From Acidimicrobiia bacterium (GTDB taxonomy: Bacteria > Actinomycetota > Acidimicrobiia > Spongiisociales > ZC4RG35): a DNA stretch of 64,000 nt. Where the stretch lies: contig OZ244034.1 of assembly GCA_965215185.1 (NCBI GenBank), forward strand, positions 736,001 through 800,000, given 5' to 3'. The notes below the pieces were generated by a model. That model made no database searches and was not told where the DNA came from. It was given only the letters and a program-made list of their open reading frames with translations. The translations under genes and the position numbers were made by a program. Positions 15,175-54,497 of the stretch are shown here, piece by piece (the first letter of the stretch is position 1; each line of letters opens with the position of its first letter).

Positions 15175-17289
15175 GTGGCTGCTGACCGGGAAAATCGTCT
15201 CCTGCGCATGCGCCAGGTGCCTCTGAGCCGCACCCGCAACATCGGCATCATGGCACATATCGACGCCGGCAAGACGACGCTCACTGAACGGATTCTCTAC
15301 TACACCGGTCGAAACTACAAGATCGGCGAGGTGCACGAGGGCGCCGCCACCATGGACTGGATGGCCCAGGAGCAGGAGCGGGGGATCACCATCACTTCGG
15401 CCGCCACCACCTGCATCTGGCACGACCACAGCATCAACATCATCGACACTCCCGGGCACGTTGACTTTACGGTCGAGGTGGAGCGAAGCCTGCGGGTATT
15501 GGACGGCGCGGTGGCGGTATTCGACGGAGTGGCGGGAGTTGAGCCGCAGTCAGAGACGGTTTGGCGCCAAGCCGACCGCTACCAGGTTCCCCGCATTTGC
15601 TTCATCAACAAGCTTGATCGGGTGGGGGCCGACTTCTTCGCGGATGTAGAGTCCATTCGCACCCGCCTGCAGGCCAAACCTCTGGTTCTTCAGCTTCCTG
15701 TGGGAGAGGAGAGCGGTTTTCGGGGAGTTGTCGATCTGGTGGAAATGCAGCTTCACGAGTGGCGGGGAGATGACGGCAAGCAGTGGGACACCGGGGAGAT
15801 TCCCGAGTCGATGCTGGACCTCGCCTACGAATACCGGGCACGGATGCTGGAACAAGTGGCTGAAGTGGATGAGAAGCTCCTTATCAAGTTCCTCGAAGAT
15901 TTGTACATCACCCCCGAGGAGATACGTGCGGCGATTCGGGTGGGTGTCTTGCAGCACATGTTTGTGCCGGTGCTATGCGGCGCGGCTTTCAAGAACAAAG
16001 GGGTCCAGCTGCTGCTGGACGCCATTGTCCATTACCTGCCCAGCCCGTTGGATCTTCCTGCGGTGCAAGGCTTCGCTCCCAAGAATCCCGAAGAGATCTT
16101 GGATCGCAAACCCCAGGACGACGAGCCCTTCTCGGCTTTGGCGTTCAAAATCATGACTGACCCCCATGTGGGCAAGCTCACCTACTTTCGGGTCTATTCG
16201 GGGTCGGCCTCCAAGGGCGGAGCGGTGCTCAACACCTCCAGCGGTAAAAAGGAGCGTTTGGGCCGGTTGCTTCGCATGCATGCCAACCGCCGCGAGGACA
16301 TCAATGACGTGTACGCGGGTGACATTGTGGCCGCGGTGGGACTGCACAGCACAACCACCGGAGACACGCTCTCCTCTATCCACGATCCCATCAGCCTGGA
16401 GTCCATGGCCTTTCCCGCTCCGGTGATCTGGGTAGCTATCGAGCCCCGCACTCGGGTCGACCAGGATAGGTTGTCCTCATCGCTTCAAAAGCTCTCCGAA
16501 GAGGATCCCACCTTCCTGGTGCGAAGCGATGAGGAGACCGGTCAGACCATCATCGCCGGAATGGGGGAGTTGCATTTGGAAGTGTTGGTGGATCGACTGG
16601 TCCGGGAGTTCAAAGTCGCCGCCAACATCGGTAAGCCGCAGGTCGCCTATCGGGAGACCATTGAATCGGAGTCGGGGAAGGTCGAAGGCCGCTACGTGCG
16701 ACAGAGTGGCGGCCGCGGTCAATACGGTCATGTGGTCATCGCCCTCGAGCCCACCGGCCCAGGAGGGGGTTACGAGTTCGTCAACAAGATCAGGGGGGGC
16801 CGTGTCCCTCGCGAATACATTCCGGCCGTGGCCGCCGGTATCGAGGAGGCTCTGGACGGCGGCTTCTTGGCCGGCTATCCGGTGGTGGATTTGAGGGTCA
16901 CCCTCCTTGACGGTTCGTATCACGATGTAGATTCTTCCGAGTTGGCCTTTCGGATAGCCGGGTCCATGGCAGTGCGCTCTGCCGCTAAGCAGGCGGGAAT
17001 GAAGCTGCTGGAACCGGTGATGGAAGTGGAAGTGGTCGCTCCCGAGGATTACATGGGAGATGTGATCGCTGATATTTCCTCGCGCCGAGGCCGAATCGAA
17101 GAAACCGATCAGCGGGGAACGTCTCGGATTATCACCGCAGCCGTGCCGCTGGGCGACATGTTCGGCTTTGCCACTGATATCCGTTCTCGGACACAGGGGC
17201 GAGCAACGTATACGATGCAGTTCAAGGCTTACCAAGATGTTCCAGCATCAATTTGTGAAGAGTTGCTTCACATGCGAACAGGTAAGTAA
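15175..17289 (+). CDS. fusA: Elongation factor G (start GTG 15175 or ATG 15208)
   Basis: [36 protein letters not shown]. Confidence 0.97.
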
Positions 17290-18516
17290 TACAGAAAAGG
17301 GGGTGTTTGGTTGTGGGTAAGGTGAGGTTTGAGCGGGTGAAGCCGCATTTGAATGTGGGGACTATGGGTCATATTGATCATGGGAAGACGACGTTGACGG
17401 CTGCGATTACGCGGGTGTTGTCTGAGCGGGTTGGTGGGAGGAATGTGTTTACTGGGTTTGATGATATTGATCGTGCTCCTGAGGAGCGTGAGCGTGGTAT
17501 TACGATTCAGATTGCGCATGTTGAGTATGAGACTGTGTTGCGTCATTATGCGCATGTGGATATGCCGGGGCATGCGGATTATATTAAGAATATGATTACG
17601 GGGGCGGCTCAGGTGGATGGGGCGGTGTTGGTGGTTTCGGCTGTGGATGGTCCGATGCCGCAGACGCGTGAGCATGTGTTGTTGGCGCGGCAGGTGGGTG
17701 TGCCGCGGATTGTGGTGTTTTTGAATAAGTGTGATTTGGTGGATGATGAGGAGTTGTTGGATTTGGTGGAGTTGGAGGTTCGGGATTTGTTGACGGAGTA
17801 TGAGTTTCCGGGTGATGATGTTCCGGTGGTGAGGGGTTCTGCTTTGCGGGCGTTGGAGGGTGATGTTGTGGCTGGTGATGGTGTGATGGAGTTGATGGGT
17901 GTGGTGGATGAGTATGTGGATATTCCGGTTCGGGATATGGAGCGTCCGTTTTTGATGCCGATTGAGGATGTGTTTTCGATTACTGGTCGGGGGACGGTGG
18001 TGACTGGTCGTGTGGAGCAGGGGGTGTTGAAGGTTGGTTCGGCTGTTGAGGTGGTGGGGTTGCGTGAGACGCGTGGTTCGGTGGCGACTGGTGTTGAGAT
18101 GTTTAGGAAGTTGTTGGATGAGGGTCGGGCTGGTGATAATGTGGGTGTGTTGTTGCGGGGGGTGGGTAAGAGTGAGGTGGAGCGTGGTCAGGTGTTGGCT
18201 GCTCCGGGTTCGATTTTGCCGCATGTGGGGTTTGAGGCGCAGGTGTATGTGTTGACTAAGGAGGAGGGGGGGCGGCATAATCCGTTTTTTTCGGGTTATC
18301 GTCCTCAGTTTTATTTTCGTACGACTGATGTGACGGGTTCGGTGGTGTTGCCGGGTGGTGTGCAGATGGTGATGCCGGGTGATAATGTGGAGTTGTCGGT
18401 GGAGTTGATTGCTCCGATTGCGATGACGGTGGGGTTGGATTTCGCGATTCGTGAGGGTGGTCGGACTGTGGGGGCGGGTCGGGTCACCAAAATCACCAAA
18501 TAACCCCCAAACCAAA
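17288..18516 (+). repeat. Copy 1 of 1,229-bp direct repeat (tuf plus short flanks), extreme G/T skew
   Basis: Matches 53269-54497 at a constant offset of 35,981 from AATACAGAAAAGGGGG to TAACCCCCAAACCAAA; sense and antisense translations identical. Confidence 0.95.
17313..18503 (+). CDS. tuf: Elongation factor Tu, copy 1 (str operon)
   Basis: [40 protein letters not shown]; GTG 17313 after SD AAGGGGGTG. Confidence 0.97.
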
Positions 18517-18588
18517 AACTTTGTAAGAAGCAGACTTAGAAAACTAAAGACCAGAAAACCGGATAAGCGAGGACAGTAGAAGAGACCA

Positions 18589-18900
18589 ATGAACGGTTCC
18601 CAGAAGATCCGCATAAAGCTAAAGGCTTATGACCACCAGAGTGTGGATGAGTCGGCGCGCAAGATCGCTGCTACGGTCACTCGTACTCAGGCCAAGATCA
18701 AAGGTCCTATACCTTTGCCCACCGAGATTCATAGATACTGTGTTATTCGCGGACCCCACGTTGACAAAGACTCCCGGGAACATTTCGAGATGCGCATCCA
18801 CAAACGTCTGATTGATATTCTTGATCCGACCGCGAAAACGGTGGATTCATTAATGCGTCTTGACCTGCCTTCCGGGGTGGAAGTGGAGATAAAGCTGTGA
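18589..18900 (+). CDS. rpsJ: 30S ribosomal protein S10
   Basis: [23 protein letters not shown]. Confidence 0.98.
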
Positions 18901-52957: not shown

Positions 52958-53039
52958 GCCGGGATACCCAAGCGGCCAAAGGGAGCAGACTGTAAATCTG
53001 CCGGCGATGCCTTCGGAGGTTCAAATCCTTCTCCCGGCA
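52958..53039 (+). tRNA. tRNA-Tyr(GTA)
   Basis: GCCGGGA/TCCCGGC acceptor, GCAGA-CTGTAAA-TCTGC anticodon arm, long variable arm, GGTTCAAATC. Confidence 0.96.
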
Positions 53040-53066
53040 CCGGCTCTCCTCGAAAAAAGACGAAAA

Positions 53067-53140
53067 GCCCCCTTAGCTCAGACGGCCAGAGCGCCTCCAT
53101 GGTAAGGAGGAGGTCTCCGGTTCGAATCCGGAAGGGGGCT
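53067..53140 (+). tRNA. tRNA-Thr(GGT)
   Basis: GCCCCCT/AGGGGGC acceptor, CCTCC-ATGGTAA-GGAGG, GGTTCGAATCC. Confidence 0.96.
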
Positions 53141-53171
53141 CTCCGTCCGGCTGATGTCGAAGACGGACCGA

Positions 53172-53245
53172 GGCGGCGTAGCTCAGCTGGTAAGAGCGCT
53201 CGACTCATAATCGAGAGGTCGGCAGTTCAAGTCTGCCCGCCGCTA
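53172..53245 (+). tRNA. tRNA-Met(CAT), elongator type
   Basis: GGCGGCG/CGCCGCT acceptor, CTCGA-CTCATAA-TCGAG, GTTCAAGTC. Confidence 0.93.
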
Positions 53246-53268
53246 CATGGAAATAAGGCAATCTATTG

Positions 53269-54497
53269 AATACAGAAAAGGGGGTGTTTGGTTGTGGGTA
53301 AGGTGAGGTTTGAGCGGGTGAAGCCGCATTTGAATGTGGGGACTATGGGTCATATTGATCATGGGAAGACGACGTTGACGGCTGCGATTACGCGGGTGTT
53401 GTCTGAGCGGGTTGGTGGGAGGAATGTGTTTACTGGGTTTGATGATATTGATCGTGCTCCTGAGGAGCGTGAGCGTGGTATTACGATTCAGATTGCGCAT
53501 GTTGAGTATGAGACTGTGTTGCGTCATTATGCGCATGTGGATATGCCGGGGCATGCGGATTATATTAAGAATATGATTACGGGGGCGGCTCAGGTGGATG
53601 GGGCGGTGTTGGTGGTTTCGGCTGTGGATGGTCCGATGCCGCAGACGCGTGAGCATGTGTTGTTGGCGCGGCAGGTGGGTGTGCCGCGGATTGTGGTGTT
53701 TTTGAATAAGTGTGATTTGGTGGATGATGAGGAGTTGTTGGATTTGGTGGAGTTGGAGGTTCGGGATTTGTTGACGGAGTATGAGTTTCCGGGTGATGAT
53801 GTTCCGGTGGTGAGGGGTTCTGCTTTGCGGGCGTTGGAGGGTGATGTTGTGGCTGGTGATGGTGTGATGGAGTTGATGGGTGTGGTGGATGAGTATGTGG
53901 ATATTCCGGTTCGGGATATGGAGCGTCCGTTTTTGATGCCGATTGAGGATGTGTTTTCGATTACTGGTCGGGGGACGGTGGTGACTGGTCGTGTGGAGCA
54001 GGGGGTGTTGAAGGTTGGTTCGGCTGTTGAGGTGGTGGGGTTGCGTGAGACGCGTGGTTCGGTGGCGACTGGTGTTGAGATGTTTAGGAAGTTGTTGGAT
54101 GAGGGTCGGGCTGGTGATAATGTGGGTGTGTTGTTGCGGGGGGTGGGTAAGAGTGAGGTGGAGCGTGGTCAGGTGTTGGCTGCTCCGGGTTCGATTTTGC
54201 CGCATGTGGGGTTTGAGGCGCAGGTGTATGTGTTGACTAAGGAGGAGGGGGGGCGGCATAATCCGTTTTTTTCGGGTTATCGTCCTCAGTTTTATTTTCG
54301 TACGACTGATGTGACGGGTTCGGTGGTGTTGCCGGGTGGTGTGCAGATGGTGATGCCGGGTGATAATGTGGAGTTGTCGGTGGAGTTGATTGCTCCGATT
54401 GCGATGACGGTGGGGTTGGATTTCGCGATTCGTGAGGGTGGTCGGACTGTGGGGGCGGGTCGGGTCACCAAAATCACCAAATAACCCCCAAACCAAA
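53269..54497 (+). repeat. Copy 2 of 1,229-bp tuf direct repeat
   Basis: Same sequence as 17288-18516; unique sequence resumes on both sides. Confidence 0.95.
53294..54484 (+). CDS. tuf: Elongation factor Tu, copy 2 (tRNA-tuf-rpmG locus)
   Basis: Translation identical to copy 1. Confidence 0.97.

Follow-up and report, generated by a model that had tools for sequence, protein, structure and literature searches.

Duplicated DNA with intense nucleotide skews was described in 2021 under the name GRINS, defined as repeats of more than 500 bp and more than 80% identity with mean absolute GC and TA skews above 0.15 in 150-nt windows (PMC8256042). The two skews of GRINS are correlated and strongest at third codon positions, the amino acid (aa) composition of the encoded proteins is shifted and a link to gene conversion was drawn; the mechanism was not known to the authors of that paper. 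Gene conversion is also the hallmark of duplicated tuf genes, which encode elongation factor EF-Tu. Concerted evolution of tuf has been reported for six phyla including Actinobacteria (PMC6053082), and conversion between the tuf genes of Salmonella initiates uniformly and proceeds in both directions (PMC5485169). Here we analysed a stretch of 64,000 nt from an Acidimicrobiia bacterium (the window; positions 736001-800000 of the single-contig 3.12-Mb genome G000, 60.7% G+C), in which both copies of tuf are written almost entirely in codons ending in G or T.

The repair enzyme EndoMS/NucS cleaves G/T, G/G and T/T mismatches (PMC6159521); in vivo, C-A and other mismatches pass in a NucS-dependent manner, and NucS acts where single-stranded DNA anneals at the lagging-strand template and forms a heteroduplex (PMC11551767). 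Deletion of nucS in Haloferax severely impairs gene conversion (PMC11276520). NucS/EndoMS is known for the repair of replication errors, and in the literature found a bias in conversion between paralogues is only hinted at, in a 2026 preprint on M. tuberculosis paralogues that speculates on asymmetric repair during recombination (PMC13061034). What we describe for tuf is not new in kind, as it is the phenomenon published as GRINS. What is new is that an essential universal gene is affected, that the skew is saturated and graded along the gene, and that the comparison of genomes points to NucS as the origin of the asymmetry. The literature found on NucS and conversion, on tuf skew and on GRINS describes no G/T-coded tuf and no link between NucS and GRINS.

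Codon usage and composition of the tuf pair

In tuf copy 1 (17313..18503, + strand, GTG start, TAA stop) 389 of the first 390 codons end in G or T, and the same holds for copy 2 (53294..54484, + strand), which has the same sequence. The sole exception is a TTC at codon 377 (18441-18443). Among all 397 codons, stop included, third positions are G in 229, T in 160, C in 5 and A in 3 cases, and the C/A-ending codons are restricted to codon 377 and codons 391-397 (GTC ACC AAA ATC ACC AAA TAA). All 32 Leu codons are TTG. These counts confirm the original prediction of a G/T-only wobble code in both copies with every Leu encoded by TTG. The keto (G+T) fraction is 0.65 at codon position 1, 0.55 at position 2 and 0.98 at position 3, and the tract has a GC skew of 0.56 and a TA skew of 0.35. 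The frame is open over its full length and its product contains the complete set of EF-Tu domains as defined by Pfam (GTP_EFTU, PF00009, 6e-61; PF03144 for domain 2; PF03143 for domain 3).

The identity of the two copies extends over 1229 bp, made up of 25 nt upstream of tuf and 1204 nt from the start codon onwards; the second unit (53269..54497, + strand) matches 17288-18516 with 100% identity. The common upstream 25 nt (17288..17312, + strand) consist of a G-rich ribosome-binding stretch followed by a G/T-only spacer. In copy 1 the G/T-saturated tract covers codons 1-390 (17313..18482, + strand), and the 3' end of the repeat (18483..18516, + strand; the six last sense codons, the stop codon and 13 nt) is A/C-rich without G/T coding.

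The share of codons ending in G or T (GT3) was calculated for 2810 open reading frame (ORF) proxies of the G000 genome. It showed a mean of 0.501, a standard deviation of 0.068 and a maximum of 0.831, compared with 0.982 for tuf, so that tuf stands out in the genome-wide comparison of third positions and chance is excluded as its cause. A phase-aware scan of the genome with a 95% threshold returned 26 stretches, of which the two in tuf measured 1203 and 1206 bp and the next longest 525 bp. As had been noted from the window, single-copy highly expressed genes on the same strand are not skewed: GT3 is 0.46-0.60 in the neighbouring or highly expressed genes rpsL, fusA, rpsJ, rplC and those following, groES/EL and rplA/J/L. 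Translational selection through tRNAs was rejected as an explanation, since the neighbouring ribosomal protein genes are normal.

Named relatives retrieved with the EF-Tu protein are metagenome-assembled genomes of Acidimicrobiia. Full-length tuf was found in 12 of 17 genomes of the same genus, with GT3 of 0.975-0.992 in all twelve. In G010 the gene lies in two pieces (GT3 0.92 and 1.00), and tuf was not found in four of the 17 genomes, whose assemblies are fragmented. The stretch is present, whole or in part, in runs of 10 studies, and tuf pieces showing 0-5 differences lie on the contigs of public runs that belong to three other studies. In these contigs T>G (27-32 per run) and G>T (14-16) dominate the variant places, and no other type exceeds 8. 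Contigs of the RNA run X15 align to tuf at 90-95% likeness and come probably from a relative; as an RNA library can also hold DNA, X15 was rejected as proof of tuf expression. That the skew arose as an artefact of assembly or consensus has a probability close to nil. The same coding recurs in 12 independent assemblies of the genus and in dozens of order-level genomes, the tuf pieces on contigs from other studies are nearly identical, and we found no point in favour of an artefact.

The skew reaches beyond synonymous positions. Across 108 genomes GT3 correlates with the keto content of codon position 1 (Spearman 0.85) and position 2 (0.61). The genus and family f10 have a combined share of Val, Gly, Phe, Leu, Trp and Cys of 0.39-0.42 instead of about 0.30, and a share of Thr, Pro, Lys, Asn, Gln and His of 0.19 instead of about 0.26. 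The start codon of tuf is GTG in the genus, at the position homologous to the ATG of order-level relatives. Together, the GTG start, the aa shift and the keto rise at positions 1 and 2 indicate a force that acts on nucleotides and not on codon choice. A quick maximum-likelihood tree of EF-Tu joins the genus to f10 (SH-aLRT 98); both have long stems there, and the genus is separated from the other members of its own family. This grouping is consistent with convergent, drive-induced replacements and leaves room for a transfer of tuf between lineages; EF-Tu trees can be misled through convergent composition.

Comparison with GRINS and other repeats in the genome

The tuf pair shows every property by which GRINS are defined, with 1229 bp of duplicated DNA at 100% identity, two positive skews far above 0.15 and a shifted composition. 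Like GRINS, it is duplicated DNA with positively correlated intense skews, a peak at third positions, a link to conversion and an abrupt switch from G+T to C+A, and it is enriched in Gly, Val, Cys and Trp and depleted in Pro, Thr, His and Gln (PMC8256042). GRINS differ in that they lie in polyketide synthase modules and mobile-element genes and occur with both signs of skew. Unlike them, the tuf pair affects an essential universal gene, keeps one sign over 1170 bp near saturation, persists across an order, and displays a gradient and a link to NucS. The main text of the GRINS paper contains no mention of tuf, elongation factor, NucS or mismatch, and its supplements listing gene families may include tuf (PMC8256042).

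The correlation of GC and TA skew in G000 is r = 0.63 in repeated DNA versus 0.25 elsewhere. Among 137 repeat regions measuring 500 bp or more, 53 pass the skew thresholds, and none is as extreme as tuf. The expectation that other multi-copy sequences of the genome would be outliers thus held in part: as a class, repeats are more skewed than unique DNA and show milder correlated skews, but many of them are normal, and the statement that all repeats are skewed was rejected. Given these milder skews in other repeats, the effect is not restricted to tuf either.

Three repeats outside the window follow tuf in the strength of their skews (1087613-1088652, 1093372-1094414 and 3090715-3091386 of G000). 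They have GC skews of 0.40-0.48, TA skews of 0.44-0.57 and keto fractions of 0.69-0.73, and they lie beside large multi-copy ORFs, possibly mobile-element genes. Two further places outside the window (604329-605639, - strand, and 2442959-2444242, + strand) have a coding strand of almost pure A/C (keto 0.08-0.14); the encoded proteins contain long low-complexity runs, one Thr-rich with His-Asn/His-Pro repeats and the other (TTTAP)n.

Two tuf copies in fusA and tRNA contexts, homogenised by conversion over very long periods, are shared with the known tufA/tufB systems, for which the published accounts report no compositional drive (PMC6053082, PMC5485169).

GC-biased gene conversion is a non-adaptive fixation bias that arises from the handling of mismatches in heteroduplex and can override selection. 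It is strand-symmetric and favours G and C, whereas the bias in tuf is polar with respect to strand and runs towards G and T. Fungal repeat-induced point mutation introduces C-to-T changes on both strands of duplicated DNA and destroys genes. The likeness to this process that had been suggested for tuf does not extend beyond the concentration of transitions in duplicated DNA: the changes in tuf are confined to one strand, include A-to-G, and leave the ORF and its domains intact, so that tuf is no case of repeat-induced point mutation.

Homogenised tract and 5'-to-3' gradient

The tuf pair undergoes concerted evolution, as copies are closer to each other within a genome than orthologues are between genomes. 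Seven of the 11 two-copy genomes of the genus have no mismatch between copies and the remaining four have at most 6, while EF-Tu proteins diverge by 4-7% between species. The flanks on the fusA side and on the tRNA side are conserved in the genus. Homology between the copies starts 17-25 nt before tuf in 10 of the 11 genomes and takes in a G/T-only spacer; in G007, where the locus stops at a contig end, upstream identity covers 6 nt. All members of the genus show complete G/T coding over codons 1-390, and codons 391-396 remain C/A-ending. Differences between the copies of G002, G011 and G005 are limited to codons 390-396 at the 3' end, and those of G008 also include five interior positions. 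The unskewed last codons are thus where the copies of the first three genomes differ, and the skewed tract matches the homogenised tract. A pairing of the A/C-rich 3' tail with the G/T-rich leader was also considered and dropped, as inspection by eye showed that the run of C after the stop codon is not conserved in the genus.

Order genomes with intermediate GT3 revealed a steep 5'-to-3' gradient of G/T-ending codons. In G059 the fraction of such codons in consecutive bins of 33 is 1.00, 0.97, 0.97, 0.97, 0.94 and 0.94 in bins 1-6 and 0.85, 0.64, 0.48, 0.48, 0.30 and 0.10 in bins 7-12. Similar gradients were found in G053, G089, G071 and G077. The gradient looks like a front moving in from the 5' boundary. 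Mismatches between copies are commoner toward the 3' end, with 59 in codons 250-400 compared to 39 in codons 0-250.

The two copies of G059 (L188 and L189) differ by four mismatches at codons 268, 269, 285 and 305, all of them transitions at the gradient front, and one copy has the C/A allele at all four while the other has the T/G allele. This pattern may be a snapshot of the front prior to homogenisation. In G059 and in G053 (L174/L175), both of family f10, the last 33-66 codons or so are depleted in G/T endings; the fraction in the last bin, 0.10 and 0.13 respectively, is lower than in any unskewed relative (0.29-0.52). These values suggest that past the advancing front the skew is reversed to C/A, similar to the abrupt sign changes of GRINS.

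Copy state of tuf in relatives

GT3 of tuf ranges from 0.42 to 0.99 in the order. A recombination between the two copies had been proposed as the cause of the skew, and comparison of relatives with one and two copies largely bears this out. In the NucS-bearing families f1, f2, f12, f14 and f22 a single detected or diverged tuf has a GT3 of 0.39-0.51 and members with two copies have 0.68-0.99. All five within-family contrasts have the same direction, and they are also visible between neighbours in the quick EF-Tu tree. Diverged pairs are represented by G050 (158 mismatches; GT3 0.45/0.48) and G086 (177 mismatches; 0.51/0.49). Single tuf genes were found in G121 and G129 (assemblies of 3 and 9 contigs; 0.505 and 0.47), in G187 (0.39) and in G150 and G204 (0.43), and single detections in G029, G048 and G060 (0.46-0.49). 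G193, also of a NucS-bearing family, has a single or diverged tuf with a GT3 of 0.42, and G227, likewise of such a family, combines 40 mismatches with a GT3 of 0.58.

Eight genomes of family f10 (G046, G053, G071, G083, G095, G112, G116 and G124) have tuf copies in inverted orientation at distances of 0.4-1 Mb or more, which probably places them on opposite replichores. Even so, the two copies show no more than 8 differences (0-8 bases) and a strong skew; neither proximity nor direct orientation is therefore needed for conversion and drive.

Of 111 order genomes with a completeness of 90% or higher, 49 gave no tuf match at E <= 1e-100, and in fragmented assemblies of the order tuf, where found, often lies alone at a contig edge. 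The identical 1.2-kb repeat seems to break or collapse short-read assemblies, and tuf copy number is therefore systematically under-reported there.

Association of the skew with NucS

The G000 genome encodes a NucS protein with NucS_N and NucS_C domains, and no MutS_V match, hence no MutS, was detected in it. NucS was found in all 17 genomes of the genus. We tallied genomes with two assembled near-identical tuf copies, 48 in which NucS was found and 24 in which it was not. GT3 is at least 0.68 in 48 of 48 genomes with NucS (38 in the order and 10 elsewhere in the phylum), and 0.37-0.66 in 23 of 24 genomes in which NucS was not found, the exception being G090 with 0.85. Absence of NucS from unskewed two-copy genomes was predicted before the search, which gave no match for G024 and G021 and matches for three skewed genomes. 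Elsewhere in the phylum, where the prediction was likewise made beforehand, five unskewed two-copy genomes are without canonical NucS (G246 has only a partial match of 29 bits) and five skewed ones all have NucS at 111-136 bits. Among five NucS-less genomes checked, MutS was present in one (G140) and neither protein was found in four.

The separation recurs within the order, between f4 and seven NucS-bearing families with two near-identical copies, and in other classes, between f22 and f54 on one side and f26, f29, f40 and others on the other side. The statement for f4 (no NucS; tuf with two copies, collapsed in the assembly and unskewed) is based on the unpublished genomes G021 and G034, and three of the ten NucS-less single-copy rows (G130, G174 and G235) are likewise unpublished. 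The link of NucS to the skew is correlational. It agrees with the original prediction, which had suggested, as one of the possible routes, that G:T and A:C mismatches are handled unequally and had proposed to look for co-occurrence of nucS and mutS with the trait.

Proposed mechanism and alternative explanations

The explanation that we favour, with moderate confidence, is a strand-polar biased gene conversion that is filtered by NucS repairing G:T but not A:C mismatches. Frequent conversion would keep the tuf copies identical, and each event would produce a heteroduplex with one strand from either copy. The transferred strand would consistently be the antisense strand, paired with the resident coding strand. 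Cumulative GC skew places the origin of G000 near 2.53 Mb and the terminus near 1.11 Mb; both tuf copies therefore lie on the leading strand, in favour of this explanation, and their coding strand is the lagging-strand template. NucS would act on this tuf-tuf heteroduplex, removing G:T (also G:G and T:T) and ignoring A:C, as its published specificity and the comparative association suggest. Where C or A of the resident strand meets an incoming A or C, the mismatch would escape NucS and the resident base would become T or G after replication; the reverse changes would form G:T mismatches and be erased. The outcome would be a one-way drive of C>T and A>G on the coding strand, confined to the homogenised tract and powerful enough both to fix all synonymous sites and to shift replaceable residues towards G/T-rich codons. 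For the gradient, one may speculate that with antisense transfer the exchange runs 5'-to-3' along that strand toward the 5' end of the gene until homology stops; coverage would therefore be highest at the 5' boundary.

Several points weigh against this explanation. NucS status is conserved within families, so that phylogeny partly confounds the association and the independent events behind the 48-versus-24 table are far fewer than its rows. G090 (10 contigs, 96% complete, three copies, GT3 0.85) gave no NucS in family or protein searches, and NucS was not found in G119 either (GT3 0.92; tuf at a contig edge, assembly 91% complete). The unskewed, NucS-less G024 is weak evidence, as the completeness of its assembly reaches only 85% and NucS is present in its congener G032. 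GRINS are also reported from phyla that are not known to carry NucS. G040 has a GT3 of 0.90 with one tuf, both flanks assembled and no fragment of a second copy. GRINS have skews of both signs (PMC8256042). The model itself would require a consistent choice of the transferred strand, and the steep gradient, which the uniform bidirectional conversion of Salmonella tuf would not predict, would need an extra assumption. The third tuf-like copy of G090 (G090:C13:172621-173805, L194) has 71% identity to the query, three in-frame TGA and a GT3 of 0.82, and is possibly a decaying pseudogene.

An unlikely competitor is that the tuf pair is a GRINS-type element whose skew arises from another recombination-linked process, such as error-prone synthesis during conversion or a feature of branch migration, with NucS as a mere phylogenetic marker of the clades that have this process. 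The dependence on concerted evolution fits any recombination-linked mechanism, NucS status is structured by clade, and G090 and G119 are skewed with no NucS found; GRINS are moreover associated with RuvA, and polymerase errors driven by tautomers have been proposed for them (PMC8256042). Error-prone synthesis that makes G:T mismatches should however raise the skew where G:T repair is missing, yet 23 of the 24 NucS-less two-copy genomes are unskewed, and the separation by NucS recurs inside the order and in other classes. Far less probable is selection on the tuf mRNA for a message poor in C and A, the possible benefits being fewer RNase sites, no Rho loading or weak structure. EF-Tu is among the most abundant proteins, the C/A-depleted coding strand is followed by a C/A-rich 3' flank as a Rho loading site would be, and a gradient could mean stronger selection early in the message. 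Adjacent highly expressed genes are nevertheless normal, and so is the single-copy tuf of close relatives, whose message would face the same demands. Two-fold codons that end in T rely on wobble, the G-rich sequence gives rise to numerous internal motifs resembling ribosome-binding sites, the composition of a highly conserved protein is shifted as well, and the link to NucS would have no reason.

We regard as more improbable still that the exposed coding strand is deaminated (C to U, A to hypoxanthine) during heavy transcription or replication, with no part played by recombination. The direction of change fits the general leading-strand skew of the G000 replichore that carries tuf (GC about +0.05, TA about +0.03), and the coding strand is not transcribed and also serves as lagging-strand template. 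The skew stops, however, 6 codons before the stop codon, spares co-transcribed neighbours, and is absent from the single-copy tuf of relatives and from all but one of the 24 NucS-less two-copy genomes. Deamination of single-stranded DNA, which had been named as a possible route, is thus unsupported.

Extended from tuf to other repeats, the blindness of NucS to A:C would be a general mechanism behind GRINS in NucS-bearing bacteria. Ectopic conversion would then produce a strand-polar keto drive strong enough to have changed about one tenth of the EF-Tu residues, apparently in a convergent manner in two lineages of the order, genus g1 and family f10. We give this wider proposal an even chance of being correct.

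Genomic context and annotation

Copy 1 lies between fusA upstream and rpsJ downstream. The genes for tRNA-Tyr, tRNA-Thr and tRNA-Met (52958-53246) precede copy 2, and the short ORF downstream of it was read by eye as a putative rpmG. The original prediction also pointed out an open antisense frame in register with tuf, and this frame is indeed open (17268..18614, - strand, 448 aa) and longer than tuf, because no antisense codon in that frame can begin with T. It is a by-product of the G/T wobble, with no evidence of a gene. In our longest-ORF gene proxy it displaced both tuf genes, and automated or longest-ORF gene callers could choose the wrong strand in genes recoded in this way.

Significance

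Few bacterial proteins are as conserved and as highly expressed as EF-Tu. A process at the DNA level appears to fix all synonymous sites of its gene and to alter the protein, and would be a non-adaptive drive overriding selection. With a repair enzyme that sees half of the transition mismatches, GRINS would gain a concrete, testable cause, which matters to the evolution and engineering of polyketide synthases.

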